Origin: Spizellomyces punctatus DAOM BR117
Lineage: Eukaryota
Length of the DNA: 64,000 nucleotides
Strand: one strand, 5' to 3'
Assembly (NCBI GenBank): GCA_000182565.2
Contig: KQ257459.1
In this document: positions 12,246-35,674 of the stretch, piece by piece
How positions within the stretch are numbered: the first letter of the stretch is position 1
How the letters are laid out: the number at the start of each line of letters is the position of its first letter
Position numbers and translations under genes: made by a program
The notes under the pieces: generated by a model
The model's input: only the letters and a program-made list of their open reading frames with translations
Database searches by the model: none
What the model was told of the DNA's origin: nothing

Positions 12246-13981
12246 ATGCCTGGTCTGACGCCAAAGCCGGCCTCGACACCACACACGACTGACATGTCTT
12301 TGTCATGTTGCCCATCACGGAAACCACAAGGTCTCGGAATCCTGCTTGACCCACAACTGCCATCGGAGAAGCCAACCATTTTGGAACCCATCGCAAATCC
12401 GCACCGCCCACCTCACAAAATATCGCCTACAGATACCGACGACGACTCGGAAGAGTTTTTAAATGGGACTTCTTGGGAGCATATATACGAGCGACATCGA
12501 ATGTACTTTGCGTATTTGCACAAGACACTGCATGCACTGAAACATGAGCTTGGTAATGGCAGAGAGGTTGAAGCCGGCGAAGCAAGTGGAGAGCGGAATA
12601 GCGATAGGCACAAAGAAGACGAAAATGACATGCCAGCGTCGGTGTTTGTGCTTCCCTACGACCTGGACACGGACGCTGACGAGATGACTTCAAGTAATGG
12701 GGTAGCACTGGGAGAGACATTTATCAAAGTGACGGTGCCTCCAGAAACAGTCCTGACAGCGACAGATGTTAAGTGATGACACAACAAAGCAAAGAACAGT
12801 TGCAGGCAGATTCACCCACGCATACCGCCGATCAAGATGGCGAACAGAACGCAGTCATTAGCGTATTGGTTCCCTCAGACACTGTTGTGACTTTAAAGGA
12901 AAGCCTTCCAGTGACAACCTCCACACCAGCTCTTGACGATCGCCCAAGCGTGTCCCTGGCACCACCTTCAGAAGTCACAGAACCTAGTACGCTTCTTCAT
13001 ATACCCGTTTCACCAGCCGCAGAAGGTGTCGTCGATGCAACATGCGCGTCCACAACTATTACACCGACATCAAAGCTCAAACCTGCTATCCGATCACGAT
13101 CCCCGTCCTCAAAATCCGTTCGCTTCAATGCCACTGCCTTCAAGCATATCCTTGTTTTCCCCCGCGGAACAATACCGATAGCACTGTTGACTTGTCCGCA
13201 ATTTACCCTGCAAGATTACGCTTCGATCGATCACCTCGGATCGGGGACTCCACCGTTGGTCGTACGTCCGGCAAACTTTACATTCGATGAGCTCTCGCGC
13301 CTTGATTCCTCGCGGCCTGTCCGTGTCGAGACTGTCATGCTCACATTAAAGGAGAGCACAAAGACACCAGTCTTGATTGTCCGCATACGAGTTGCGAATT
13401 GGGGCAACCCGAAAGAAGTTGTCATTCGATATTCAAACGATTCCTGGACAACGTATACTGAAACACGAGCCGAGAGTGCCAAGTGGGCAGGGTTTGTCGA
13501 GGGGTGCGATAAGAGTGAGGAACGATTTTCGGTTGAGATCCCCAACATGACGCCGGGAACGACGGTTTTCGCCGTTCGATACAGTATCAATGGTCGCGAA
13601 TGGTGGGATAATAACATGGGCAGCGACTATAAAGTCGACCTTGCAATGCTCCCTAATACCACAACAAAACAAAGCTCATCTGTGTCCCAACCAAAATGGC
13701 CATCCATGTCCATCTGGACGTCAGAATATCCACCTAATGTATTCAAGTGCGCCCCAAATCCCGTTGTTGAACCGGTCGTACCAGATTCTCCTCCGCTACC
13801 AAATCCCGGACGTCGACATCGACCGTATTCATTTTGGACTAATGGGGATTGGACGCGAGATGCAAAATCTGGGCGTCTTGGATGTGGCTCGCTGCCTACA
13901 TCTGAAAGAAGTGTAAAATTACAATCGGGGCATTCATTGTCACTTTCAAGACCTTTATATGCAGACAGTAATGGGATATAG
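12246..13981 (+). CDS. PP1 glycogen-targeting subunit (CBM21 domain, Gac1/PPP1R3-like)
   Basis: RVxF-type KSVRF, VRIRVANWGNPKEVVIRYSNDSW, FAVRYSINGREWWDNNMGSDY; two ORFs joined near 12770 by a 38-nt intron or a 1-nt indel. Confidence 0.85.
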
Positions 13982-18462: not shown

Positions 18463-21400
18463 ATGTCAATTTCAGGTAGTCAGCTAGAAATGACTCAAAC
18501 CGATCCTCCACACTCTAGTCTCGTCCCAACAAGGGAAGCCGACGAAAATGTTGTGATCCCCCTTGACGATCCGTCTATTATGCAGCGGGAGGACGGGTGG
18601 GCCATTCCCGTACCGAAGGCCGTAGGTATCGGAACCGAGTCGTACGTCACTAATGGGGGAATGGCACAACCATGGCAAGACGGCGTCAAAGAGGTTGAAA
18701 AGCATGTACAGAACACGGATCGCCCGCCGCGTCCGGAACGAACAGGAAGCCTTATTCGCGACTCGATTTCCATATCCATTTCCACTCCCTCTGATCAAGA
18801 CACGGCAAGTGAGGTCCGGCAAAGGACGTCACGACAGTATCAAGATGGGAAAGGTAGAGAACAGACCTTTGTTGAAGGTCACGAAGATGGAGATGGATCT
18901 GCGGGATGTGATGGACGTATGGACATTTATTGGGAAAATGTTCGATACTCTGTGACGGTCGGACGCGGGAAATCGAAAAAGGAAAAGGAGATTCTAAAGG
19001 GTGTGTCAGGACGGGCTCGTCCTGGAGAGGTAAAAATATATATCAATAATTGGAGTATTGGAGATCATGAACAGATAATAATGGTTTGTCTGCTATCAGA
19101 TGGTTGCCATCATGGGAGGATCGGGTGCAGGAAAGAGTACGCTTTTAAATGTCTTGGCTGGGCGGGTGCCAACCGGCACACCCACAGGCGTTATTCTCGC
19201 CAACGGACGCATCCGAGAAAAGCGAACATGGAAGAGATTGGTAAACAAAAGCAGCCTCATGAAACGCCAAATCTTTTTTGTACCCTCGTAAACTAATACT
19301 ACCATTTAATGGTAGGTTGGTTACGTCGAACAAGAGGACTTGATGTACGAAAACTTGACAGTTCGCGAAACCCTCACTACAGCCGCTTTGCTCCGTCTCC
19401 CAAATAGTCGATATACCAAAGACCAAAAACTGGCGCGTGTCGATGAGGTTTTAGCAGAGTTGGGTTTAACGCATGTGGCGGATTCTAGGATTGGGAATTC
19501 CCAGATGGGCGGGATATCTGGTGCGTTTGTTTTTCGTTTGATGCTTTCCATCTACATGAACCGGATTGTAATGGCTAAAAATGTTAATTGGTTCATAGGT
19601 GGCGAAAAGAAACGAGTGTCGATTGGTGTGTTGATACTTTCATAGCTTTTGTTTACATCCTACTTATTTTGTTGTTTTGATTAGGTATTGAACTCGTCAC
19701 GAATCCAGGGTAAGATCTCCATCGGTGGGTGCATAGTCAAACGCACAGGTTACTCACAAGGGGCTTTAGAACGCTCTTTCTGGACGAACCGACAACAGGT
19801 CTCGACTCTGCAACGGCACGGAACATTTGCGATATGTTGAAAAACGTAAGCTGTTTGCACTTGCCGTAATCGAATACGTTGTTGACTTTTTGGTATGGTT
19901 TATCAGCTAGCAAAAAAGAGCGGGAAAACGATTAGTACGTATTGTTGAAAAAGACCAGTCATACTTTTGCAAAAAAAAACGTGGTGCTCAAAAGCGTGTT
20001 TTTTAAATGACAGTCATGACGATCCATATGCCGCGAGAAACTATTTTGGATATGATTGATCGGGTCGCGCTCATGTCATATGGCAAGATGGTCTGGTTTG
20101 GACCTGCCAAAGGTAGGGACTCTGATTCGCACAAAACTGGGAAATTCGAAATAGACATAAACACATGTTATCATCCTTTTTGTAGATGCGTTAAAGCATT
20201 TCGCTCAACTGGGATACAAGTGTCCACCTCAGACCAACCCCGCAGACTGTAAGTAAAACCAACATTTTTGGGCTAAACAATGCAAAACACGCCCATCTGA
20301 CACGTCCGCAGTCTTTCTTGATCTCATCCAGGTTGATACGCGGGATCCTACATCCCAGGAAAGACTCAAGAAACTTTTGGACGCATGGGACAGGGTGTCG
20401 ACACAGTATGTGAAACCGATTGATAGTGCCCTGCGGGAGACCGCAACGGGACAGCAGCAAGCGCTCAAGGAAAAGAAAGGTGCACGACATAAAGTGGAAG
20501 ACGATTGTCATATTGATCGCTGGGCTGTACCCTGGCCGGTGGAATGCGGTGTATTATTGCAGAGGAACTTGAAGGTATGGTTTCCAACCCTTCGATGCCT
20601 ATAGCTCATATTTTAGTGTTTTGTTTAATTCCTTGATTTTTTTTTAGCATGTTTGGCGTAGCAAGATTATCATTATCTCGACGCTCATACAGCAATTTAT
20701 CCTTTTTCTTATTATTGGGTTTGTCTTTTTCCGGATATCGGATGACCAGGCGGGTGTTCAAAACCGATATGGAGTCTTATTCTTTATTTGTATCAATCAG
20801 GCACGGAAACAGTTATAAATATGGCAGATTGGGAGCAAAGCTAACCCGTAAAACATATTTTTTTTCAGACATTTTCGTTCCTCATGCCCATCATCACCGT
20901 GTTCCCACTCGAACGACGCATCATCCTCCGAGAACGTGCTGCAGGATCATACCGAGTTTCCGCGGCTTACCTCGCAAAATCTCTCTCCCAATGGCCTCTA
21001 GCCATCTGCGCATCCCTCTTGTTTAGTCTGCCCGTATATTGGCTCATAGGGCTGCAGCCAAATGTGGGTCGATGGATTTTGTTTATTGTTATTACGCAAT
21101 GTCTGGTTTTTGCGGCGCAGAGTTTGGGGATGCTTATTGGGTCCAGGTGCGTTGTATATGCGTTCTGTCGAATCATATCATGCCCTAACTATGTATATAG
21201 TGTTCCAAATGTGCAAATGGCTCAAGTGTTTGGACCGCTCGTTGTGGTTCTGTTTGTTATTTTTGGAGGAAACTTTGCGAATCAGGATAGTATTACGCCG
21301 GTTTTGAGGTGGATTCAATGGTAAAGTGTCTTTTATTTCAATCGTTGATTTTGAACGGTACTGAAATGGAAATGTGTAGGATATCAATCATTCGTTATGC

Positions 21401-21710
21401 GTATGGGGCGTATATGCAAAACGAATTTTACGGACTAGAGTTTCAGTGTCCGGGGGGAGGTGGTGGTGCAAGCGGAGGTGCACTCTGTGCAGCTCAAGGA
21501 GAGCAAATCGTTAAATCGTTTGGACTGGTATGTACAACCCAAGTGCACTTTCAAGCCCACATTTTCTCATTCTGTTCATGCATAATTATATAGGACACAC
21601 CTTCGAAAGCAGTGTGTATTATCGTGCTTGTGGGTCTTGGACTGGCGTTTCAAGTACTGGCTGCACTGGTACTGCGACGGACGACGAGATTGAGAATCAA
21701 GATCATTTAA
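18463..21710 (+). CDS. ABCG (White-like) half-size ABC transporter, multi-exon
   Basis: Walker [10 protein letters not shown], signature [13 protein letters not shown], Walker [31 protein letters not shown] domain, TAA 21708-21710. Confidence 0.93.
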
Positions 21711-21783
21711 AAGAAATGATATTTTTTAATATTGGTTTTTTAATGGGTGGGGTAAACAGTAGGTAATCATTGTTAATCAGAAA

Positions 21784-21787
21784 CATA
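21784..21787 (+). promoter_or_regulatory. Fanzor target-adjacent motif CATA at the left junction
   Basis: aaaCATA|GTGCGG; CATA is the TAM reported for SpuFz1. Confidence 0.8.
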
Positions 21788-21946
21788 GTGCGGAGCCGAT
21801 GGGTATTGGCACTAGTACAAAGATTCCAACCAATTTAATCATAATTTTACTCGATTTAGACTCATGAACTATGGTTTGATTCAAAAAATCCTATGTAAGT
21901 CATCGTCCATTTTCCCAGGCTTTCATCTTTTTCTACAGATATCATC

Positions 21947-22816
21947 ATGCCACCAAAGAAGAAGCAAAAGCTCGAAAGGCTCGAAAAACTTGACAAACCC
22001 ACCTTACATACCTGCAACAAGACGTCCTTCACAAAGGCTTTCTTGCCTAATGAGACCTACCAGCAGCGTCTTCTAGATTACATCGCCATCATCCATCAAC
22101 TCGCTGACCATGCTTCCCACGCTCTCAAATTCTACATCCTATATGCACCAACCTTTCCCACGGTAAATGAAGATACAATTGAAGCGATTCTCTATCTTCT
22201 CAACAAGGGGGAGGCTTGGCATCCAAGAAAGGAAGCAAAGAAGGCATGGCGGGATTGTTTGCTGCCATATGTTCAACGGTACTGCCACATCATCAGCTTC
22301 GTTCATCCAAATCTACAAAAAGAGCAGCAGTCAATCAATTACCTGACAGCGAGTATGATGACGAACCTGAAAGTCAACGTTCAAGAGCATTTCATGCAGA
22401 TGCTCCTTCGGTATATCAATCTGCGGCTCGATGTGAAGGGACAGAAGCAGCGACTGCCACTGAAAAGCGATGCATGGAAAGCCTTCTTTACTCGGCTACG
22501 CTACTTAAAGTCAGTTTTTCTTTTTGATATCGTGCCCGAGTCGCTGGATGACTTGACTGCTGAAGAGAGTGAGCTTCTAGAAGAGATGTGGTCCTTCATT
22601 CCCCTTTCCGACCAGCCGCTTGCATATTCGGTTGCTGTTGACCCTCTCGCTTTCTTTCCTGCTTACTGCAAACTCTCTGTGCTGTATGAACGACATGGCT
22701 TCCGTCGGTTCAGCGCAATACCTCTTCATCGGTCTCTGATTCAGTCCCATATTCGCATCGACACGGTCATCCTGTACCAGCATATCCTTTGCATCATGCG
22801 ACGGGAAGCGGAAACT
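21947..22816 (+). pseudogene. Fz1: Fanzor1 nuclease, N-terminal 290 codons (NLS-like start, REC/WED)
   Basis: MPPKKKQKLERLEKLDKPTLHTCNKTSF... closely matches SpuFz1 as recalled; cut at ...RREAET by an LTR. Confidence 0.93.
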
Positions 22817-23417
22817 TGTAACGGATTTTTTGTTGGTAGACTACGGTAAAGACAACTTGGGTCTCCTAGCAGGTTGTGTGGGTGTCCGTACTAGGAATCG
22901 TAGTCTCCAAATCCTTTCTTTGGGCGTCGGTAGCGACTTGAGGGCGAGAGGCAAGGAGAGTCGGTTAGTTGTGAACCGAGCAGGATTTAGAGGCTTCGGT
23001 ACGGGTGATCAGGCCGTTGAAGCGCTCTGTTAGGTTCCTGTTAACCTAAGATTGGAGTTGAGAAGCGAGTTATGGGGATTTTTTTGTCGCTACGGCTTCT
23101 GCCCCCGACTTATTTTATTGAATACATCCTTTTTATACAAGATTCTTGGATAAACTGTTAAACTAAACTAAACTAATGGGTGTCGCTGCACCGCAACTGA
23201 TTTATTGGTGGCGGTACCGATCTCTTCCTTTTCCGCACTGGCTCGGGCCTCCACAGGTTGTACGAGGCACGCTGAAATCTAATGCGCCAATTGCCATTCT
23301 CCGAACCGGTTTTTTCGGTCGCGGTAACCCAATCGGTGGAGTTGGTCACGCGATTCGTGCTTCCCGCGTCCGATTTGGGCTTACTCGCGATCTCTCGAAG
23401 ACGTCCTCGTCGTTACA
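22817..23417 (-). repeat. 3' LTR (LTR-A, 601 bp); polypurine tract at 23418-23427
   Basis: TG..CA ends with 6-bp inverted termini; AAAGGGGGGA precedes it on the minus strand. Confidence 0.95.
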
Positions 23418-23474
23418 TCCCCCCTTTGAAGAGCCAATGCACCGGCGCTCCGAGCGGGGGTGTTGGGACGTCAA

Positions 23475-26400
23475 TTACCAGGTCGGTACCGGATCTGTGG
23501 GGTCCGCTTCATCTGCATCTTGGTTCACGACCCAGATGATACTGGCACGGCCACCGACGTTGCAACAAAACCAGATTTGATCTGTTGCGGTACGAACGAT
23601 GGTACCCGGGGTCACGTCGGGGCCAGTTCTGGTTACGTAGAGGGCCGTAAAGGTCTCCGCGGCCCTTTTCAGGTTTGTCGCGCGGAAATGGTACTCCGCG
23701 TGCTCGTGATGTCGGGGTCTGGTGAGCCTTGCAGAGGCTTCCGCTGCGTTCGCCGTCCTTAGGAGCACCGTCCTAGCTGCTTCAATGACGGCGGACGCAA
23801 ACTCGTGGGCGTCGTCATTCGGCCAATCGGTGAACGGAGCCGTTTTTCGGCTTCCCGCCTCATGTTGGGGAACCCCGCGGTCGAGCCAAGCGGCGCACGG
23901 AGCTGGGCGCCCTCTTTTTCCGGGTTTTTTCGCGTCGGCAACTATTCCGACCGCTGCTTCACCACCATCGGTGGCCTTGCTGTAGGGGTCCGCGATGTGG
24001 TTTGTGAGGGGCTGGCCCACCGCGTAAGGTTTCGGAGCGTCGACTCCCAGCCAAAACTCATGCCCTGGAGTCTGCAGCGGCGCGTTGGGGTTGGTCCGAA
24101 GCTGATGAACCCAGGAGTGAACCCAGGTAGCGATCGCAACCCCAAGGCGATCCAGCACGCCCTCGGCCTCGAAGTCGCCCGAGTCTTCCTCCCAAGGGTA
24201 GCCGGACATGTACGTGGAGGGTACGCTCACTCCTGCTTGTCCTCTGAGATCGGTGTTCATTGTGTTAGAAATGGAAGTTTTAGTTTCGGTGTCGATAGAA
24301 GGGGTTTGCGAAGCAGAGTGAGTGTGTAAGGGAAGTAGGTCGTGGGCGGTTGAAGAAGAAAAAAGAGGGGGAGCGTGCAGGGGCGTCCTTTTAAGGTCGT
24401 CGCCGGCTGATTTTGACAGCTCGGACGCGCGTAAGCGTGATCGGGAGGCTTGGTGTGGCGTTCTCGACTGGTGAGGTAAGCCACGCGAAACTGGTTTTCT
24501 TTCTGGTGAGAGGGCGTGATTATCACGTGAGCTATCGTCCGGATAAACCGCGAAGCATTGGTGGTCGGAAGCATAAGCCGTATCTTCCGGGGCGTCGCCT
24601 GCAAGGCTGACTACCAAAGAGTCCTCTACTAGCGCGCTAGTGGGAGCTCTGGATCTCCAGTACTCTTCTAAGGCTTCGGAAGCCTCTGTTAGGGCTTCCT
24701 CTGGTTCCCAGGTATCCTCATGGGGTGGGTATCCGGACCAACGTATTCGAAATTGACGTTTTCCGCGCCTGGTTCGATGGTCTACTATCGCTTCCACTTC
24801 AAACTCGCCATCTGAAGCGTTGGAATCCTCCGCTTGTGCTTCCGCGACCTTTTCCTCAGTTTCGGCGTCGACAGGCTTCTGGTACGGACGTAATTTCGAT
24901 ATGTGAAACCATGGATGAAGTCGTCTCATCTTGTCTGGCAGTTTTAACTCGTAGTTGTCGCGGAGAGGGTTACAGTCGGTCACCGTGACTGGTCCCAGCC
25001 ATTTCGGAGCGATCTTGGACTCATACCCTGCTAGGTTTTTCGTGCTCAGAAGCACCTTATCTCCTCTCCGGAACTCCAAATGTCGTCGCGATAAATCGTA
25101 ATATCTTTTCTGCGAATCCTGGGCTTCGATCATCAGATCTCGGATAAGGATGTTTAGGTCGCCGAGGTGTTTACAGAGCTCCTCCGCATCTGCATTTCTG
25201 GTTTCTGACGGCCTTTCGACGATGTCCGCCAGTGGATTGTGGGGCTCATAGCCTAGGTCCATTCTGAATCGCGTCATTTTTGTCGCCTCGTGTACCGTAT
25301 CGTTGATAATGAATTCCGCAACCGGAAGAAAGGTGTCCCAGTCGTCTAATCGGGTGTTGACCATTGTGGTAAGGACCTGCAAGACCGTTGCGTTGTCTCT
25401 TTCTGATTGTCCATCACCTTGAGGGTGGTAGGCTGTGGTGAGCTCTTGATTAATCTTTAGGTTTTTGCAGACCTCCTGCCAAAATCGACTCGTAAATTTG
25501 GAGTCGCGGTCCGAGATAATGGTCTCCGGGATGCCGTGCAATGGGACGTAGCGCTCTATAAAGAGTTCCGCGACCTGAATAGCTGTCGCAGTGCTCTTGA
25601 GGGGCCATACGTGGATCCTCTTTGAGCATTTACATGCTATTAACCAAAAGGCGTCGTACCCTCTGGAAGTAAGTGGGAGCTTGGTTACGAAGTCAGTCGT
25701 GATGACTGTCCAGCGTCCCGGAGCTGGTGGTATGGGTTTCAGCAACCCCGGAATCAGTTGCGGTACCCTTTTTGAGCGTTGACAGGTTTCACATCCTGCG
25801 CAGTGTTTTCTGAAATCTTGTGCCATTTTCGGCCACCAGACTTGCGCTGCAGCTCTAGCGTAGGTTCTTTCGAATCCGAAGTGTCCTCCCCCCTCGTGAA
25901 AAAGCTTGCGCACCTCAGGGGTGCAAGCAGGGGGCACGTAAAGGCGCCAAAGGTCTTCGGAGACTGAAAAACGGTGCCACAGCAGGTTATCTGCACGTTG
26001 CCAGTCCTGAAGAAAGCGCGTGTCGGCGGTAGTGTACGTGTCGGGGCTGGTCTCCCATAGGAGCGTGCGGGCCTGTTGGGCTATGGGGTGGAGCTGGCCG
26101 GTGAGGCCAGCGCGGATGGCGGCAATGAGTGCAGGCTGTAAGGCCAGACGAAAGACGGCATCTGCCAGTGTCGAGGAAGGTGCGAGAGCAGCTGGTGTGG
26201 TGCGCAGCCATCGTCTTCCGCGTTTCGACACCCATATTTGGGTCGCGGTGGAGCAGAGTAGGGTTTCCGCTCCTAGTAGCCGTGAAAGTGTATCAGCGAC
26301 AATGTGAAAACGTCCTGGTTTGTGAACGATTGTCATCCATTCGGACCAGTAACTAAGATCGAGGGCCCAGCGGAGAAGCTTACGGTTCTCGCCTTTGTAT

Positions 26401-29400
26401 TTAGCGAGCCACAAAAGAGCTCGGTGATCAGTAATGACCGTGAAAGGCAGGCCTTCGAGGTATGGGCGGAGTTTTCCGAGGCCCCAAATGAGGCATCCGG
26501 CCTCGAGTTCGACGGGGGGGGCCTTCTTTTCCGAGGTGGTGGTGCCTCGGGAATGGTAGCACAGCGGGCGTTTAGAAGCATCCGGCTGTAACTGTTCGAG
26601 CGTGACATTAAACGCTGTGTAGGAAGCGTCACTGTGAAGGGTGTAGGGGAACCCTTTTCTGGGTGCCGCGAGCACTGGAGCTGTTGTCAGAGCCTGCTTG
26701 GCGGCTGCGAAGGCAGAGTTTCGGGAATCGGTCCATGAAACTTCACGCTTCGCGATAAATCTGCGCAGACCTTGGTCGGGGCGCTTGCGAGCAAGGCGTC
26801 CGACACAAAAGGGGTCAATGGGTAAGTCCGCCAGCGATGATTGGCGTAGATTGACCGCCGGTAGGTCTGAGGAGCTAGATTTCGGATGTTGCGAAACCTC
26901 AAATTGGGCTCCGGTGGCTGTGATTGTAGGGGCCACCGCCGTGTCGAGCATGGATGGTGAATTGAGCTTTTCAGCGCCTTTCTTCGGGTCAGCGCGACCC
27001 TTTTTAAGGTCTCGGTATTCGCGAACGCCCTCTTGGATAGCGTCTTGCAGGGGTCGGACGAGTTCCGCGTAGCGAGAAATGAATTGGGCGTAGAACCCTA
27101 GGAGACCCACGAATGACCATAGGTCACCTATGAATTTGGGTTGTGGCCAATCGACTATGGTTGCGACCTTGTCTGGATCGGTAGCGAGACCCTGAGAGGA
27201 GGCAACGAAACCGAGGGCCGTGAGCTGGTGAAAGAGCCATTGACACTTGTCGAGTCTTAGGGTGAGTTTGGCTCTGGAAAAGCGGTCGAGCCAGTCCGCG
27301 ATGGCGTCTAGGGCTTCCGCGGCTGTCTCCGCTCGTGTGTGGATATCGTCGACGAAGTTGTTGATATTTCGCCATTTGGAGGGACCCAAGGTGTCGTCCA
27401 TCACCCGACAGAAGTGCGAGGGGGCAGTCTTGGGTCCGAAGGGCATAAAGAGTGGTTCGTAGATGCCGTCATGGAGTCTGAGCGCGAGCCATTTGCGTAC
27501 CGACGCATCGGTGATGGCGATTTGGTAGAATCCTTTGTTTGCGTCACCTCCCGATATGTATCGGAATGGGACTGCGACGATCCAGTTCAGGATGTCGAGC
27601 ATGATGGGAAAGGGATATGGATCCCAGGCCATGCAGTCGTTGGCTCGGCGATAGTCGAAGGCTACGCGCGGGGGTTTGTCTGCATAGCGAATGATAACAG
27701 GATCGCTGGCGAAGGTTACTTCGGTGGTTCGTTTCCACCTCTGAAGCCCCATCATGGTGTCTCGCTCCGTCTCGAGGGCTGTCCGCTCCAACGGAGAGTA
27801 CGACCGTGGCCTCGAAAGGGGTGGCGGAGCCGAGATAAATCGAGGCGCATAAGGAATCTTGGTGTAGTTCCCTATGAGATGACCCTCATAGCTGAAGGCT
27901 TGATGGAAGTGTCGTAGAATGTTGATTAGGGCCCAGACCACGGGTTTGGGTCGCTTGAGATCGACGTGGAAACGTTCCGCGTCTTTTAATTGGGCTTCGA
28001 AGGCCCCTGGAGCCCTCTCCGTAGAGTCGAGGTTCCATTTGTTCCGAAGTGTCTGCCATTCTTCTTTGGAAATGTTCTCTTCGGGGTCCGCAACCGAATT
28101 ATGGGTCGCGGTGGACAGTTTGAGGCCTAACGGGACCGTTGAGCTAGCAGCGGTGGCCTCAAGAGGGTTTTCGATGAGAAAAGTTTGGGCTGCCACGCGC
28201 GTCTGTCCCGTGATTAACATGGTTAATCTAGACTTCTGAGCTTTGGCTTTGGTCAGCCGTGGCATTGACACATCCTTCATGAATTCACCCTGCTTGGTCT
28301 TGTATGGCGTGCCGCGCATGTGATCGGTGTCCAGCTCATCCGTTATGGAGCAGGGGATAAGGATGTCTGGATTCTTGAGCGTCACCGCGAAACTGGGTAA
28401 CGGGGGTTCCTGAACCAAGGTTTGGAGTTTCAAATGTCCCAAAACGTCGTTGGCTAGGATGATGAGAGGTTTCCCGTACGCGATGACCCGAAAGTAGGCG
28501 CGGAAAGTCAGGTATTCTCCGCCGCGGCCTCTGAGGGAAGTTTCGAGGCATACTGTCTTGGTAGATGAGATACGTCCACCAATGCCGTTGAAAGCCATCG
28601 TTTCCGCATCCTGCAAATCGGTTTCGGAGAACAGAAGGCCTTGGTACGTGTCGGAAATCAGAGACTCGCAGGCCCCTGTGTCTAGTACCACAGGTGCCCA
28701 GAGCTGCGCGATGACGGCTAGCGTCCAGCAAGGCTGCGTTTGGGTCTTAGTCTGGCTTTTGAGTACATCGCCTAAATCTACTGAGTAGAAGGCGTTGATA
28801 GAAGGCACCGCGATCTCGAAATGGGGCGCGATGTCGTTAATTGTTGCTTCCGTAGCCTTGATCACACTCTCAAAGTGTTCTCTAGTTTTGTCGTTTTGTG
28901 GTTTTGTTGTTTTATTCTGGCGAGCAACTTGTTCGATAGCCAGCATGACTATACGCGTCCGTTCGCTCTCTTCGTGTCTTTGGAGACGTGGATGGTCTTT
29001 AACGTGCCGAAATTTGGGGTTTCCGCGACGATAATAATAGTCTGAGCGAACGATATTGCCTGTCAGGAGAAATGCCACCAGTTGCAGGTTGGCGTACGCA
29101 TCAAAGATAACAGGATCTTCAGAGCTCCACATCAAGAATTTCTCGCGCTCGTCGAGCTTTATCCAGGCAAGGAGAATCAAACGAGGGGTACCGTCTTCTC
29201 GGACCTTTCGCAGGATTCGATCCTTGTCAGCTTCGGCTGCGGCAGCGATGTAGAGGTGGTGGGAACTCCACGCGACTGCGTAGGGGTCGTTCCCGAGGTG
29301 CCCGGCGCCTCGCTTCGGTTCTTTGGCGAAGAAGCTGAGCGCGCGGGGGTTGTTGCCCATCATCAGAGCCACTTGCGGGGTGCCCCAGATGATGGCTATG

Positions 29401-30953
29401 TTGTCCCAGACTCGGTCCCAGCCCTGCGTGGGCGTGCGGGGGTCCTCTTCCTTGGTCACCGTGACCTTGGAAAGAGGTGCGGTCATCAAAATTGTTGATT
29501 CCGAGTGCTTGGGTGAATGAAAGAACCCGATGGTGTGGAATCCTTGATTAGCGGCTTCCGTTCTTTCCAGTTCCGAAGCCGAAAAAAGAGTCTCGGTGGT
29601 AGCGGACGTCGAGTCCAGCTCCACTATGTACGCCTTCTTCGATTCCTGTTTGGGTTTCCAACCTGAGGGCATGGGTGCTCCATATGGTCCTTTCTTTCCA
29701 TCTTCAGGATCTTTTCGGTTCGGGTTCTGCCAGCAGAAAACATTCCAATGCTTTTTCTGACAGAATTTGCAGGGTGCCGGTGGTTCCTTGTTGGGGTCCG
29801 GAACCATCTTCTGAGGACCATCGCGACCCTTTTCGGGGTTTCCGGTTTTATGCGGAGCCGTCTGCTTAGGGCCTTTGTCGGTTCCGGTCTTTTGTGACTT
29901 CTTCTGAGCTTCTGCAGCACCGCTGTAGCAAGGGTCTCGTTTTCTGGTGTCATCAGAGCCGAAATAAAGGCGCAGGAAGTCTTTTAATTTGGTCAGGTTC
30001 GTGACGTTACAGGATTTGACCATGATTTGGATGTCGCTGGGCAATTGTTCGACTATTAGGTCGAAATGCTGGTCAGCGGGACATTCTATGTTTGCCCGGT
30101 CGCCATAAGCGAGGCGCCGGAGATGAGTTTTGTGGTCGATGAACGCGAGAAAGCTGCGAAATTCTTTGGGGTTCGCATGGCAGCGCACATATTCGGTTTT
30201 GCGCTTGGACTCGGTTAGGGGATCTCGGAACTCTCGAAGCAGTTCCTCTTTCCACCTTTTCCAGGTCCATGAGCGAGTTTCCTGGGCTTCCAGAGTGTAA
30301 AACCAAGCGTCAGCAGGGGTTTTCTCGGCTATCATGGCTGGTAGGAGCTGTACCATCCTGGCATCCGACGTTGCGCTAACGTTTTGAAGAAGTTGGACTT
30401 TGTTAAGCCATTCTTCAACGTCTTGGTTTCTTCTGCCCGTAAACTCGGGTACGTCCTTTGCTTTCAAGGAATCGACCTTGGTGTCGCTGGCCCACGGGGC
30501 CGCTGGCACTTGGATTGGAGGCACCGCACCTGAAAAACTTGGTTCGGTACGCTCCCTTGGTGTGTCCGCCGTTTCCCACGGGGTTGCGGACCGTTCTCTT
30601 GTAGCTCGTGCTATGGGAGGTTGTTCAGGCAGCGGGCGATGTGCTAGGGCTTCTAAGGCTCGTGCGAGGCGCTCATCCGCCGCTGTCTGACGTTCGGAAA
30701 GCCTATGAAGCTGTTCCGTAAGGTTTTGAGTTGCCAACTGCGTTGCAGCAGTCGAGCGGGCAATGTCTTCTTTTAACGCTGCCACTTCAGAGGCCATCGT
30801 GGCCAAGTTAGGGGCTTCCGGTTCGACGGAAGTGGTCCCTGAACGCCTTGGGCGTGTTGCGGGAGGGACTTCGACGTCCTCCGCAGGACCCTGACTACGA
30901 GTCTGGATCACAGGTGAGCGGCCTCGCGTTGGTGAGCGTTCGACCGGCATCAT
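23475..30953 (-). CDS. Gag-Pol polyprotein (gag, Zn knuckle, PR, RT, RNase H, IN, chromodomain, extra domains)
   Basis: Uninterrupted ORF; CKFCQKKHWNVFC, LDTGA, FVDD, SDAS, GGHFG..CETC, TTDFVTKLP, SDRDSKF, FEVEAIVDHR..RWSGYPPHEDTWEPEEAL; first ATG 30953. Confidence 0.95.
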   Translation of the reverse strand: MMPVERSPTRGRSPVIQTRSQGPAEDVEVPPATRPRRSGTTSVEPEAPNLATMASEVAALKEDIARSTAATQLATQNLTEQLHRLSERQTAADERLARALEALAHRPLPEQPPIARATRERSATPWETADTPRERTEPSFSGAVPPIQVPAAPWASDTKVDSLKAKDVPEFTGRRNQDVEEWLNKVQLLQNVSATSDARMVQLLPAMIAEKTPADAWFYTLEAQETRSWTWKRWKEELLREFRDPLTESKRKTEYVRCHANPKEFRSFLAFIDHKTHLRRLAYGDRANIECPADQHFDLIVEQLPSDIQIMVKSCNVTNLTKLKDFLRLYFGSDDTRKRDPCYSGAAEAQKKSQKTGTDKGPKQTAPHKTGNPEKGRDGPQKMVPDPNKEPPAPCKFCQKKHWNVFCWQNPNRKDPEDGKKGPYGAPMPSGWKPKQESKKAYIVELDSTSATTETLFSASELERTEAANQGFHTIGFFHSPKHSESTILMTAPLSKVTVTKEEDPRTPTQGWDRVWDNIAIIWGTPQVALMMGNNPRALSFFAKEPKRGAGHLGNDPYAVAWSSHHLYIAAAAEADKDRILRKVREDGTPRLILLAWIKLDEREKFLMWSSEDPVIFDAYANLQLVAFLLTGNIVRSDYYYRRGNPKFRHVKDHPRLQRHEESERTRIVMLAIEQVARQNKTTKPQNDKTREHFESVIKATEATINDIAPHFEIAVPSINAFYSVDLGDVLKSQTKTQTQPCWTLAVIAQLWAPVVLDTGACESLISDTYQGLLFSETDLQDAETMAFNGIGGRISSTKTVCLETSLRGRGGEYLTFRAYFRVIAYGKPLIILANDVLGHLKLQTLVQEPPLPSFAVTLKNPDILIPCSITDELDTDHMRGTPYKTKQGEFMKDVSMPRLTKAKAQKSRLTMLITGQTRVAAQTFLIENPLEATAASSTVPLGLKLSTATHNSVADPEENISKEEWQTLRNKWNLDSTERAPGAFEAQLKDAERFHVDLKRPKPVVWALINILRHFHQAFSYEGHLIGNYTKIPYAPRFISAPPPLSRPRSYSPLERTALETERDTMMGLQRWKRTTEVTFASDPVIIRYADKPPRVAFDYRRANDCMAWDPYPFPIMLDILNWIVAVPFRYISGGDANKGFYQIAITDASVRKWLALRLHDGIYEPLFMPFGPKTAPSHFCRVMDDTLGPSKWRNINNFVDDIHTRAETAAEALDAIADWLDRFSRAKLTLRLDKCQWLFHQLTALGFVASSQGLATDPDKVATIVDWPQPKFIGDLWSFVGLLGFYAQFISRYAELVRPLQDAIQEGVREYRDLKKGRADPKKGAEKLNSPSMLDTAVAPTITATGAQFEVSQHPKSSSSDLPAVNLRQSSLADLPIDPFCVGRLARKRPDQGLRRFIAKREVSWTDSRNSAFAAAKQALTTAPVLAAPRKGFPYTLHSDASYTAFNVTLEQLQPDASKRPLCYHSRGTTTSEKKAPPVELEAGCLIWGLGKLRPYLEGLPFTVITDHRALLWLAKYKGENRKLLRWALDLSYWSEWMTIVHKPGRFHIVADTLSRLLGAETLLCSTATQIWVSKRGRRWLRTTPAALAPSSTLADAVFRLALQPALIAAIRAGLTGQLHPIAQQARTLLWETSPDTYTTADTRFLQDWQRADNLLWHRFSVSEDLWRLYVPPACTPEVRKLFHEGGGHFGFERTYARAAAQVWWPKMAQDFRKHCAGCETCQRSKRVPQLIPGLLKPIPPAPGRWTVITTDFVTKLPLTSRGYDAFWLIACKCSKRIHVWPLKSTATAIQVAELFIERYVPLHGIPETIISDRDSKFTSRFWQEVCKNLKINQELTTAYHPQGDGQSERDNATVLQVLTTMVNTRLDDWDTFLPVAEFIINDTVHEATKMTRFRMDLGYEPHNPLADIVERPSETRNADAEELCKHLGDLNILIRDLMIEAQDSQKRYYDLSRRHLEFRRGDKVLLSTKNLAGYESKIAPKWLGPVTVTDCNPLRDNYELKLPDKMRRLHPWFHISKLRPYQKPVDAETEEKVAEAQAEDSNASDGEFEVEAIVDHRTRRGKRQFRIRWSGYPPHEDTWEPEEALTEASEALEEYWRSRAPTSALVEDSLVVSLAGDAPEDTAYASDHQCFAVYPDDSSRDNHALSPERKPVSRGLPHQSRTPHQASRSRLRASELSKSAGDDLKRTPLHAPPLFSSSTAHDLLPLHTHSASQTPSIDTETKTSISNTMNTDLRGQAGVSVPSTYMSGYPWEEDSGDFEAEGVLDRLGVAIATWVHSWVHQLRTNPNAPLQTPGHEFWLGVDAPKPYAVGQPLTNHIADPYSKATDGGEAAVGIVADAKKPGKRGRPAPCAAWLDRGVPQHEAGSRKTAPFTDWPNDDAHEFASAVIEAARTVLLRTANAAEASARLTRPRHHEHAEYHFRATNLKRAAETFTALYVTRTGPDVTPGTIVRTATDQIWFCCNVGGRASIIWVVNQDADEADPTDPVPTW

Positions 30954-31097
30954 TCTCGGTTTCGTGAAGTTCTGTCTCCGAAACGAGAGAAAAGGTTTCC
31001 GAGTAGCTACCTGAGCGGATCTCGGTTTGCGCAAGAGTTTCGGTACGACCGAATAAGGTTTTCAGCTGAATTTGAGAGGGGAAGGCGGTTCGTCGCG

Positions 31098-31108
31098 CTT
31101 CTCCACCA
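31098..31108 (-). promoter_or_regulatory. Primer-binding site TGGTGGAGAAG (tRNA-Ala-like); second copy at 32357-32367
   Basis: Directly abuts the LTR; complementary to a tRNA 3' end ...TCTCCACCA. Confidence 0.75.
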
Positions 31109-31708
31109 TGTAACGGATTTTTTGTTGGTAGACTACAGTAAAGACAACTTGGGTCTCCTAGCAGGTTGTGTGGGTGTCCGTACTAGGAATCGTAGTCTCC
31201 AAATCCTTTCTTTGGGCGTCGGTAGCGACTTGGGGGCGAGAGGCAAGGAGAGTCGGTTAGTTGTGAACCGAGCAGGATTTAGAGGCTTCGGTACGGGTGA
31301 TCAGGCCGTTGAAGCGCTCTGTTAGGTTCCTGTTAACCTAAGATTGGAGTTGAGAAGCGAGTTATGGGGATTTTGTGTCGCTACGGCTTCTGCCCCCGAC
31401 TTATTTTATTGAATACATCCTTTTTATACAAGATTCTTGGATAAACTGTTAAACTAAACTAAACTAATGGGTGTCGCTGCACCGCAACTGATTTATTGGT
31501 GGCGGTACCGATCTCTTCCTTTTCCGCACTGGCTCGGGCCTCCACAGGTTGTACGAGGCACGCTGAAATCTAATGCGCCAATTGCCATTCTCCGAACCGG
31601 TTTTTTCGGTCGCGGTAACCCAATCGGTGGAGTTGGTCACGCGATTCGTGCTTCCCGCGTCCGATTTGGGCTTACTCGCGATCTCTCGAAGACGTCCTCG
31701 TCGTTACA
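31109..31708 (-). repeat. Internal LTR (LTR-B, 600 bp)
   Basis: Near-identical to LTR-A, with three private differences seen by eye. Confidence 0.95.
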
Positions 31709-31985
31709 GATATCTGTTCTTGATGGTGATCTTGTTCAGAGCCCTGTAGTCCACACACATCCTCAAAGACCCTTCTTTCTTCTTGACAAAGAGGATGGGT
31801 GCTCCAAATGGGCTCTTGGATGGTCTGATGTGGCCTGCCTCCAGAAGTTCTGAAAGCTGCTTCCTCAGTTCTTCTAACTCCAAAGAAGAGAGGTGGTAGG
31901 TTGGTCTCCAGGGGGTCTGGTTGGGGTCACTGAGTTCAATTCTGTGATCTACTGATCTCTCAGGGGGAAGTCCTGGGGGAATGTG
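31709..31985 (-). pseudogene. RT N-terminal fragment of a different Ty3/Gypsy element
   Basis: [70 protein letters not shown], truncated by LTR-B. Confidence 0.9.
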
Positions 31986-32182
31986 ACAGAATTCTTCTGT
32001 CAGTGCTATGGTTATACTGGTTAGATGTGGTTCCAAACTAGTGGTCACATGACTTTGCTGATGGTGTCAGCATTCATTTGACCAGAATTAGATAAATAAG
32101 CAGATTTAGCCATTTCTGGCTAAATTAGATGAGTATCCTGACACACTGGCATCTGCCCCTTTCAATCAAGTGGCACAGTGTA

Positions 32183-32318
32183 TTTAGGATGACTTGTCTC
32201 ACTTGTGATTGGCTATAAATGGTGCAATAGGCTGACAAATAGTTTAGGATGACATGTACAAGATCTGATTGGTTGCAAATGGTGCAATAGGCTGACAAAT
32301 AGTTTAGGATGACATGTA
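32183..32318. repeat. 60-bp tandem repeat, about 2.3 copies
   Basis: TTTAGGATGAC at 32183, 32243 and 32303; AAATGGTGCAATAGGCTGACAAATAG twice. Confidence 0.9.
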
Positions 32319-32367
32319 TGAGTTCTGAATTTGAGAGGGGAAGGCGGTTCGTCGCGCTTCTCCACCA

Positions 32368-32967
32368 TGTAACGGATTTTTTGTTGGTAGACTACGGTAA
32401 AGACAACTTGGGTCTCCTAGCAGGTTGTGTGGGTGTCCGTACTAGGAATCGTAGTCTCCAAATCCTTTCTTTGGGCGTCGGTAGCGACTTGAGGGCGAGA
32501 GGCAAGGAGAGTCGGTTAGTTGTGAACCGAGCAGGATTTAGAGGCTTCGGTACGGGTGATCAGGCCGTTGAAGCGCTCTGTTAGGTTCCTGTTAACCTAA
32601 GATTGGAGTTGAGAAGCGAGTTATGGGGATTTTTTTGTCGCTACGGCTTCTGCCCCCGACTTATTTTATTGAATACATCCTTTTTATACAAGATTCTTGG
32701 ATAAACTGTTAAACTAAACTAAACTAATGGGTGTCGCTGCACCGCAACTGATTTATTGGTGGCGGTACCGATCTCTTCCTTTTCCGCACTGGCTCGGGCC
32801 TCCACAGGTTGTACGAGGCACGCTGAAATCTAATGCGCCAATTGCCATTCTCCGAACCGGTTTTTTCGGTCGCGGTAACCCAATCGTGGAGTTGGTCACG
32901 CGATTCGTGCTTCCCGCGTCCGATTTGGGCTTACTCGCGATCTCTCGAAGACGTCCTCGTCGTTACA
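32368..32967 (-). repeat. 5' LTR (LTR-C, 600 bp)
   Basis: Matches LTR-A except for one missing G near 32886; followed on the minus strand by the PBS and leader (32325-32367 = 31066-31108). Confidence 0.95.
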
Positions 32968-32970
32968 ACT

Positions 32971-33989
32971 GTTGAAAGGTCGACTTATGGTTGCGCATCT
33001 GTAATCTGCGGAACAAGGCTTTTAGATCTCGTTGTGGAATGTGTTTTGAAGGCTCGATCACGACAGACGGTACCTTGGTGTCAGTTTACTTGAAACATCC
33101 TGAAGCTGACAAGTATGGAAAGTGCAGCGGCGGAGGGAAAAAGTCAGCAAACACAACGGAGGCAGAGGTTAAAGCGCAATATGTGGAGAAAAACTTACCT
33201 GCTTGTCGAGTAGCAGAGAATGTTGTTGTTATCGACCCAAACAAGCGCGACATTCTCTACTGCCAAGACAACAGTGGTATGACATTTTGCTACACCGCCA
33301 ACCAGCGAGCCGTGGAGACTGGAAGCCGTCGATTTGCAAAAGAACGGCAGCAGATGAAGAAGGAAGCGGGAATGGACCTCATAGAATCACGTATCCCTAG
33401 TCACAAGACAATGAACCTCATGGACTTCATGCGCTATCTCCTTGTTCGGTGCGCTGATTGGGATCGTCGCAAGGAATTCTACTCCCACCCTGCCCACACG
33501 CGATGGAAATGGCACTCCTTCATCAATCGGCAGTGAAGCGAATCAGACCTCATATCCAACATGCGCAACAAGTTTGGGAACTTTACCGTTGTGATGGGTG
33601 ATTGGAGCGACGCTGGTCGAACTGCGAGATTTCAGACCTCATCAAAGACAAAAGGCTGGCGCACCCTCTTTAAGCGGAACAGGATCAACTGCTTCCTTCT
33701 CGACGAGTACAAGACCTCATCTGTCTGCCCTCACTGTTCCTCTGGCGTTGAAAAAGGCTTCAAAACACGACCTCATTCAAGACCTTGGCGCCGTCGCGAA
33801 GGCAAGATTGAAAAAGTCCACGGATTGCTGGGTTGTACCAACCCTAACTGTTTACAGCAATCCTGGACGATGCGCTACTGGAACAGGGACACGCTGAGCA
33901 CCTGCAACATGCTGATGATTGTGCAATCAATGTTGGATGGGCACTGTAGACCAGAAGTGTTCAGCAGGAGTGTTCCAGCCGTAGCTTAG
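32971..33989 (+). pseudogene. Fz1: Fanzor1 nuclease, C-terminal part (RuvC I/II/III and Zn finger)
   Basis: VVVIDPNKRD, MGDWS, LLDEYKTSSVCPHC, GCTNPNC, WNRDTLSTCNM; 1-nt frameshift near 32976 and in-frame TGA at 33534-33536. Confidence 0.93.
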
Positions 33990-34003
33990 ATTGGTTAGAT
34001 TAG

Positions 34004-34093
34004 GTTTTCCGAGCCGGTTGTCGCGCGGTTCAATCCCTGGTGCGGGTGCTAGTGCCAATACCCATCGGCTCCGCACTAATCATTTATTCTGTC
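34004..34093 (+). ncRNA. Fanzor omega-RNA: scaffold 34004-34078 plus flank-derived guide from 34079
   Basis: GTTTTCCGAGCCGGTTGTCGCGCGGTTCAATCCCTGGTGCGGGTGCTAGTGCCAATACCCATCGGCTCCGCACTA; GAGCCGGT pairs with ATCGGCTC; overlaps the right TIR; 3' end approximate. Confidence 0.88.
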
Positions 34094-34526
34094 ACTAGTA
34101 TAAAAATATTCACACATTTTATTTTTTTACATGAGCCTTCTCTGTTAACATGCGCGGCAACTAAGCTCACATGTCCAAAGTGTAGATGTAAGCAGTTGTA
34201 GTCATAACTCGTAATCAGCGGCCGCGATCTTTGCCGCAGAAAATGTCACATTTGGGTTTTCCCACCCCCCCAAAAATTCCCACACCGTCAATAATAAGGA
34301 AAACTCTAAAGTTATTTTTAGCTTTTTTTTTAAAGTGATGTTGGGATATTGTTGAGTCTTTGCAGGAATCATCTTAAGAACCCTAATGGGCTTGAAAGAG
34401 TTCGATGGCATGAGTAAAGGGTGAACGATAAACAACCAAAAAACGAACAACAACAACAACAACAACAACAAGGACATAGAGTTGAAAAAACAGACCCTTG
34501 ACAAGGCACCCTCACACTCTAAAACC

Positions 34527-35674
34527 ATGACCTCAAAAAAAGACCCTAGTAAGATGCCCGACATTCATCTCGCCGTCGACGAATACCCTCTCACAAGTAC
34601 TTCAACACCCACCTCCTCGCTCTCGTCGCTGGACAACACCCCAGCACGAAGTAAACCCCTTCCAACCAAACTCTCCAAAACGTACGCAACGCACCTTGAT
34701 GCACTCTGCAGGGATCCCAGTGTGTTGACAACGTCGCGGGTGGTATCGACGAGGACGTTATTGTGGTGGAGGCTTGGGGCGGCGTTTTGGACGGTGTTTA
34801 TTATACCGTGGAGTTTGGCGAGAGGGGAGGCTCAGACTTATTTGTTTTATTTTACGCATTTGACGTGGGTGGGGTTGGGTGTATGGTTTTTGGTAAGTGA
34901 TGAGTCGGAATGTTGTTCGAGTTTTTTGTTGTGTGTTGACATTATTTGGATAGGTTTCGGCGTTCCAGACGTGGAGATTCAAAAGAGATGGATCCATGAA
35001 CGCTTTTTTAAAGCAATGCAAGTTTACGCAGTGGATTACTTGGAATCTCTATGTGTTGCCTGCAACCTTTCATTGGATTGTCCCAGTTGAGTCGTCTTTT
35101 TATCCCTCTTTCCTTGCGTTTACATGAAACTTATAGTGTTTTTGGTAGATTGTGTATTGGGCGCTATTATCAGGAAGTCTCTTACGGACCGGTAAAGCCA
35201 TCGACGTAAGTCCACCAAAAAAAAAAAAATAATCCAACAAGAGAAAATCACAATTCTGACCTTTATGATTTTGAATAGTGGTGGACAAACGTCAATGTCC
35301 ACGCACTAGATTTCGTCTTTATCATGGTGGAATTTTATTTGAACCGTGTACCCATGTATTATTCGCAATGGCCTCCTGTCATTGGTTCCGGGTTAGCTTA
35401 TTTGGGGTACGCATTCTTTCAGCATGGTGTGTATCAAGGGTACGATAAAGCTGACTAGTAAGTTTACTGTCGTATGAAATGTTGATTTGGGATATTTTTA
35501 TTGATTTTGTTTATATTGGTGTATAGTCCTGATGGATGGTGGGTTTATTCCTTTCTGAATACCTCCAAGGCGTCGGCGTGGGTATACTACCTTGTTCTCC
35601 CCCTTGGATTTGTCGGTGTGTTCTTGTTTGTTGTGTGGTTGCACAAGATTCGGGATCGTCGACGGGAACAGTGA
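34527..35674 (+). CDS. Multi-pass membrane protein (rolling-stone/FAR-17a-AIG1-like)
   Basis: LFYFTHLTWVG, IVYWALL, NVNVHALD, WVYSFL; four introns; TGA 35672-35674. Confidence 0.75.

Follow-up and report, generated by a model that had tools for sequence, protein, structure and literature searches.

The window, that is, the whole 64-kb stretch of DNA analysed here, contained a 12.3-kb element (21786–34078), which is one catalogued copy of Spu-1 from Spizellomyces punctatus DAOM BR117 carrying a Fanzor1 gene of the SpuFz1 family and a 3′ omega-RNA. The element was located behind a host gene of the ABCG type, and its Fanzor1 gene was split by a nest of Ty3/Gypsy sequences (Table 1). We regard this structural reading of the locus as close to certain.

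Table 1. Features of the Spu-1 locus and its flanks, in window coordinates
Feature	Position	Strand	Basis
Host gene of ABCG type, upstream	19082–21710	+	Pfam domains; introns skipped by X3 and X6 contigs
CATA: flanking CA plus the TA common to the repeat	21784–21787	+	equals published SpuFz1 TAM
Left terminal inverted repeat, 33 nt including TA	21786–21818	+	repeat search; published 30-nt 'end' = 21786–21815
Fanzor1 N-terminal piece, 290 aa, SPPG_09322	21947–22816	+	8gkh_P residues 396–690, E 5.7e-161
Ty3/Gypsy nest splitting the Fanzor ORF, 10,151 bp	22817–32967	-	repeat families, polyprotein frame, published 'Ty3' feature
Fanzor1 middle piece, 186 aa, with the IDPN catalytic Asp	32976–33533	+	8gkh_P residues 693–876, E 2.1e-103
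In-frame TGA; a residue in SpuFz1 (chain position 877)	33534–33536	+	sequence and alignment
Fanzor1 C-terminal piece, 150 aa plus stop, partly SPPG_09323	33537–33989	+	8gkh_P residues 878–1032, E 3.5e-90
Omega-RNA scaffold, ~75 nt, with the right repeat and TA at its 3′ end	34004–34078	+	comparison with SPPG_07727, published omega-RNAs
Right terminal inverted repeat, 33 nt including TA	34046–34078	-	published 'end' = 34049–34078
Right flank: predicted 14–15-nt guide and target half of the empty site (ATCATTTATTCTGTC)	34079–34093	+	sequence, published guide length

Host gene, termini and published record of the element

The upstream host gene contained two matches to Pfam ABC_tran (19082–19288, E 2e-8; 19316–19642, E 3e-5) and one to ABC2_membrane (20884–21324, E 7.6e-25), a domain placed overall at 20845–21324. 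The order of a nucleotide-binding domain followed by the membrane domain identified it as ABCG-type. Its last exon (21594–21710) ended with the stop codon TAA at 21708–21710, and its exons were supported by a spliced contig. Therefore, 75 nt separated the stop codon from the TA of the left repeat, in agreement with the initial annotation, which had placed the site about 75 bp downstream of the ABCG stop. A spliced contig of run X3 (21593–21797) continued past the last ABCG exon, covered the 75-nt spacer, and stopped at 21797, within the left repeat, probably because the repeat is present in many copies. The transcript of the host gene seems to extend into the end of the transposon, and the course of the contig places the insertion within the 3′ untranslated region of the gene or immediately after it.

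A repeat search over 21500–34400 gave one long inverted pair, with arms of 33 nt each that were 97% complementary and 12,227 nt apart. Both arms started with TA. The 25-nt core of the repeat occurred exactly twice in the window and in none of 100 shuffled sequences, and a metagenome scan with the same core gave no matches. At the left junction the sequence read gaaaCATA followed by GTGCGGAGCC; the stretch 21781–21815 consisted of aaaCATA and then GTGCGGAGCCGATGGGTATTGGCACTAG. The CATA reported in the initial annotation was thus present, with its TA at 21786–21787. At the right junction, GGCTCCGCACTA was followed by ATCATTTATTCTGTC, with TA at 34077–34078, and contigs of other copies departed from the locus exactly after 34078. 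The 13-mer ATCATTTATTCTG started directly 3′ of the right TA, at 34079, its single occurrence in the window with up to two mismatches allowed. The locus therefore had the termini of Spu-1, namely terminal inverted repeats of 30–33 nt ending in TA at the coordinates of the published 'end' features, with CA directly upstream of the left repeat to give CATA at 21784–21787.

Two further observations concerned the left junction. Another copy, found in runs X3 and X23, matched the locus from 21780 on, that is, through gaaaCATA. The base 5′ of CATA was A in all three left junctions that could be read (ACATA), a sample far too small to define a fifth TAM position.

The locus corresponded to record NW_015971546.39 ('Loci with Fz', 14,675 bp, supercont1.10) in Supplementary Data 1 of Saito et al. 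(2023), which is cited throughout from the accessible portions of its text and supplements. The 'end' features of this record, 1225–1254 and 13488–13517, corresponded to 21786–21815 and 34049–34078 of the window. The record also annotates two 'fz' pieces, a 'Ty3' feature, and the gene models SPPG_09322 and SPPG_09323. The translations of both models, and of the right-flank gene SPPG_05859, which is given word for word in Supplementary Data 1, were identical to ORFs of the window. Since features and translations agreed in this way, the present finding concerns a published and individually catalogued Spu-1 element. In the accessible supplements, NW_015971546.39 had no gene model on the left flank, and peptide strings from the ABCG C-terminus were absent. 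Within the same accessible material, the catalogue comprises 42 Fz loci, of which 19 are full-length, together with 134 'ghost' loci; additional genes are present at 11 loci, with Gypsy/Ty3 in the Fz gene among them. The record also contains a 'cur_end' feature (a curated repeat hit) at window position 29848–29877, inside the Ty3 polyprotein, which had only TGCGGAGCCG in common with the repeat and looks like a chance hit.

The Fanzor1 gene and the Ty3/Gypsy nest

Three ORF pieces matched consecutive parts of the SpuFz1 chain 8gkh_P by phmmer (21947–22816, 32976–33533, and 33537–33986, the last without its stop), and this homology identified the gene as Fanzor1. The motifs VIDPNKRD, LDEYKTSSVCPHC...CTNPNC, and WNRD aligned with the solved chain, so that the RuvC catalytic residues and the C4 zinc ribbon were all accounted for. 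The C-terminal piece contributed the Glu of LDEYKTS, the CxxC...CxxC zinc ribbon, and the Asp of NRD. The roles of these residues (the IDPN Asp, the Glu six residues before the zinc ribbon, and the NRD Asp) were taken from the accessible parts of Saito et al. (2023) and of a 2026 review. A metagenome scan with the 290-aa Fanzor piece gave 163 pattern matches, none of which was confirmed.

The Fanzor1 ORF was interrupted in three ways. The nest split it after ...RREAET, and the N-terminal frame ran on into the LTR. Contigs of other, uninterrupted copies joined 22816 to 32975 via GTTGA or GTCGA, which shows that one A is missing here in the run 32975–32977 and that the middle piece is consequently out of frame. 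The in-frame TGA between the middle and C-terminal pieces was the third lesion. The nuclease gene of this copy is dead, and any activity at the locus would therefore require Fanzor from other copies. The three breaks had been overlooked in the initial annotation, and the nuclease to which it referred cannot be the element's own.

The nest included three LTRs of 600–601 nt (A, 22817–23417; B, 31109–31708; C, 32368–32967) and a polyprotein frame of 2528 codons on the minus strand (23475–31061), and ACT was present on both of its outer sides. The outer LTRs, A and C, differed at 1 of 601 aligned positions, A and B at 4, and B and C at 5. The readable catalytic motifs and the near-identity of the outer LTRs indicate that the damage to the Fanzor1 gene is recent. 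The nest was not a simple element: an LTR, a complete internal part, and a second LTR were followed by a 659-nt remnant and a third LTR. The 39 or more nucleotides preceding LTR-B and LTR-C were identical, showing that the remnant retains the same internal end. The rest of the remnant consisted of a foreign reverse-transcriptase fragment (31704–32066, minus strand) and a 60-nt tandem duplication (32183–32302). The same Gypsy family was found in the Fz gene of the locus preceding NW_015971546.39 in the accessible records, at another position (near ...HTRWKWHS...); repeated hits of this family in Fz genes are mentioned in the accessible text of Saito et al. (2023).

When this copy was compared with the Spu-1/SpuFz1 loci as far as described in the available sources (Bao & Jurka 2013; Saito et al. 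2023, PDB 8GKH), the protein, the 30–33-nt TA repeats, the upstream CA, the overlap of the omega-RNA scaffold with the right repeat, and the guide drawn from the flank were the same. It differed in the Ty3/Gypsy insertion in the Fz gene, which is a published class, in the 1-nt deletion, and in the in-frame TGA.

The omega-RNA scaffold and the flank-derived guide

The scaffold region 34004–34078 differed by one base, compared by eye, from the same stretch of the characterised SPPG_07727 locus, and ended like the published omega-RNAs. Folded alone, it formed a pair of stems with an 8-nt loop in the second, at -28.3 kcal/mol; this fold was not significantly better than those of shuffled sequences (z -1.84, with 8 of 200 shuffles at least as stable). 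The scaffold matched no Rfam family at E up to 1. A tRNA-like origin of its GGTTCAATCC stretch was considered and rejected, as ARAGORN and Rfam (E up to 1) each returned nothing.

According to the accessible text of Saito et al. (2023), the RNA has 88–90 nt and consists of a 75-nt scaffold and a variable extension of 14–15 nt into the flank. In the accessible omega-RNA table of that study, two S. punctatus RNAs end with ...CCGCACTA (...CACTA) followed by 13–14 nt of flank. By the same rule, the guide at this locus would start at 34079. The earlier proposal that the guide match begins directly after the TA is thus consistent with the ends of published omega-RNAs. Among the 383 CATA sites of the window on both strands, the one closest to the 15-nt guide had 6 mismatches.

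Read depth in the RNA run X23 fell from 107 in the bin 33609–34075, which is common to other copies, to 0.64 from 34076. This run is a standard RNA-seq library and not a small-RNA library, its scaffold reads are common to copies, and no guide-bearing transcript of the locus was seen in it. Separately, 339 and 286 reads of X23 carried unlike sequence before 33996 and 34000, respectively, and 213 reads diverged after 34042. The reads confined to the scaffold (33996–34042) are probably transcripts of ghost loci or of copies with part of the omega-RNA.

These data bear on whether the copy is a fossil, in which the junction would only preserve the family signature, with no guide RNA and no cutting at the site. 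The ORF split by the 10.2-kb nest and further broken by a frameshift and a stop codon would fit a fossil, as would the lack of appreciable X23 reads across the right junction and the detection of native omega-RNA at only four loci in the accessible text of Saito et al. (2023). Both repeats were intact, the scaffold was nearly unchanged, and the damage appeared recent; these features argue against a fossil, and the type of library behind X23 weakens the argument from missing reads. According to the same accessible text, ghost loci without an ORF give working omega-RNAs that function with SpuFz1 in trans, which makes a supply of Fanzor in trans plausible here as well. We therefore consider a fossil copy rather unlikely, and favour a nuclease-dead copy with an intact guide module. 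Like the ghost Spu-1 loci, as described in the accessible material, it has a guide-RNA module flanked by repeats and CA and would be served by Fanzor in trans. The ghost loci differ in being ~550 nt long and in having repeats that differ at seven positions, whereas this copy has the canonical Fz-type repeats and scaffold.

The CATA junction, the empty site and retention

In the accessible text of Saito et al. (2023), the TAM of SpuFz1 was determined as 5′-CATA from a randomised library, mutation of any TAM base abolished cleavage, and in vitro cutting occurred only where the guide sequence directly followed 5′-CATA. The same text reports a conserved CA 5′ of the left repeat in Fz loci as well as in ghost loci, and TAM regions drawn at the loci are mentioned in the legend of Extended Data Fig. 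3a. The designation of CATA as the TAM in the initial annotation agrees with this. In PMC11423790 (Cell 2024), the TAMs of 'GtFz1 and SpuFz1' are given as 'CATA and TTAA, respectively', the reverse of Saito et al. (2023), and apparently a writing error.

The guide is a transcript of the flank, so that its match to the flank is true by construction, and only the CA before the TA is informative. The numbers of TA sites in the window with CA upstream were 200 of 2866 and 183 of 2866 on the two strands (6.4–7.0%), so that one locus alone is little proof. CATA was found at all three left junctions compared in the available records, namely this locus, SPPG_07727, and the record preceding NW_015971546.39 (reverse strand). 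The comparison of left flanks suggested earlier thus gave CATA and not TA alone in these three loci, against 42 Fz and 134 ghost loci published, and wider conservation rests on the accessible text of Saito et al. (2023). The CATA junction is real, beyond chance, and already known. On the other side of the element, six right flanks began with AT, TC, GA, TA, CG, and TA, the CG being a consensus of two contigs with an agreement of 0.62. The mirror-image TG was found in none of the six. In this small sample, CA was one-sided, present on the left only and without a mirror on the right.

The target choice of whichever transposase moves Spu-1 could also account for CATA, the Fanzor TAM having co-evolved with it or coinciding with it and playing no part in retention or re-copying. 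Target preference is normal for transposases, the insertion specificity of IS200/IS605 elements matches the TnpB TAM exactly (Yoon et al. preprint, accessible part), and homing is shown for no Fanzor in the accessible text of Saito et al. (2023). Near-perfect 33-nt inverted ends and a palindromic TA, however, would predict a symmetric CA TA TG, which the right flanks did not have, and in this small sample the CA was on the TAM side of the element. Where the inverted ends are nearly perfect, a nuclease TAM accounts for a one-sided CA more readily than a symmetric transposase preference does. A pure target choice thus appears unlikely.

The empty site reconstructed in the initial annotation, ...aaaCATA followed by ATCATTTATTCTG, was a correct reading, provided that the TA is the target duplication. 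Bao & Jurka (2013) described 'putative' TA duplications flanking 33-bp repeats, as in Mariner-type carriers of Fanzor1. In the accessible text of Saito et al. (2023), the TA is counted within the 30-nt repeat, and 'two further conserved nts, CA' lie outside. The accessible part of the 2026 review assigns the 5′ duplicated target to the TAM and the 3′ one to the scaffold. Like Tc1/mariner and IS630-type carriers of Fanzor1, the element has terminal inverted repeats flanked by TA. It differs from them in the DDE transposase: no such ORF was found between the repeats, where only Fz pieces and Ty3/Gypsy frames were present. Saito et al. (2023) likewise found no transposase within Spu-1 repeats across the genome.

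Four of 24 public runs, including X1, X3, X6, and X23, were aligned to 21000–35000. The X3 and X6 contigs skipped the GT..AG introns of the ABCG gene, which identified these as RNA runs. The depth of X1 was 0 at 21000–21466 and 0.59–2.4 beyond 34076. The joint 21787→34079 expected of an empty allele was seen in none of the four runs, a comparison of low power given two RNA runs and the barely covered flanks in X1; none of the four was clearly a DNA run from a different strain with coverage of both flanks.

If the TA were part of the element and not duplicated, the empty site would read CA plus flank, carry no TAM, and stay uncut, and homing at the donor site would not occur. The 30-nt repeats with outlying CA would suit this reading, the absent joint is compatible with it, and an invariant TA at both ends fits a repeat end and a duplication alike. 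The duplication read by Bao & Jurka stands against it, as does the 5′ duplication within the TAM in the 2026 review. Moreover, the TAM from the randomised library requires all four bases of CATA in the accessible account, a requirement that would be functionally meaningful only with a TA in the natural target. The TA as an integral part of the element is accordingly improbable, and a duplicated TA is assumed in what follows.

On the occupied right side, the guide-matching flank was preceded by ACTA and not by CATA. As every TAM base is required, the filled site should be spared, and an empty site that includes the TA should be a substrate. The claim that the nuclease would cut only the empty site is supported to this extent, with the qualification that the nuclease must come in trans.

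As published, the omega-RNA scaffold ends with the right repeat and its TA, and transcription continues for 14–15 nt into the flank, which supplies the guide. The proposed sequence of events would run from there. With the TA duplicated, or one TA left on excision, a vacated or never-filled site would read CATA plus guide, predicted to be the sole good substrate nearby. If it were cut and then repaired with a filled sister or homologous copy as the template, the element would be restored, in the manner of TnpB-type 'restorative homing'. The dead copy would act solely as a guide donor, like the ghost loci, with Fanzor from intact copies elsewhere. Insertions beside CA may be preferentially retained in this way, and such retention would explain the one-sided CA. 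The homing or retention step is predicted from its sequence prerequisites (a TAM on the left, a guide on the right, and a filled junction that lacks the TAM), and we give it about even odds. Overall, a Spu-1 copy with CATA and a flank-derived guide, whose empty site would be the substrate for homing or retention, is the best explanation of the locus, with a probability of roughly 0.8.

The same logic is known from IS200/IS605 TnpB with omega/reRNA (ISDra2 type), as summarised in the accessible parts of the discussion of Saito et al. (2023) and of the 2026 review. There, too, the TAM lies outside the left end and the flank past the right end serves as the guide; the vacated site joins TAM and guide, and the filled site has no TAM beside the guide. 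Those elements differ in having no inverted terminal repeats and no duplication, and in single-strand movement by an HUH transposase with scarless excision, whereas here 33-nt repeats are present and the TA found on both sides is read as one half of the TAM and also as the final two scaffold bases. The TnpB of IS607 (ISXfa1) and the Fanzor1 of insect viruses share with Spu-1 a fixed flanking nucleotide or duplication within the RNA scaffold (Yoon et al. preprint, accessible part). For IS607, that preprint proposes promiscuous insertion followed by selection, through the nuclease, of those insertions that carry a TAM, and for insect-virus Fanzor1 it describes the arrangement given in the 2026 review, with the 5′ duplication in the TAM and the 3′ one in the scaffold. 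They differ, in the same part of the preprint, in their mobilisation by a serine recombinase or by an unknown transposon that duplicates TTAN, and in their TAMs.

The system, the CATA TAM, the conserved CA, the flank-derived guide, and this individual locus are all already published. The idea of homing or retention is likewise in the literature (Saito et al. 2023; the 2026 review; Yoon et al. preprint); in the accessible text of Saito et al. (2023), restoration of the element is only a possibility and the biological role of Fanzor is called unknown. The locus is therefore of low value as a discovery. Its value is as a check, in that the correct architecture was recovered from the raw sequence by the initial annotation.

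The one-sided CA may be the trace that Fanzor-driven retention has left at the level of the population in a eukaryote, after insertion at any TA in either orientation; this extension is tentative and somewhat less probable than the homing step. If it is true, only insertions that create CATA before their own guide would survive excision, and nuclease-dead copies would persist as guide donors served in trans. The locus, with its unique 15-nt guide, dead ORF, and intact scaffold, would then be a natural test case. As a broken copy with an intact guide module, it is a possible test case for whether Fanzor restores excised transposons with terminal inverted repeats in eukaryotes.
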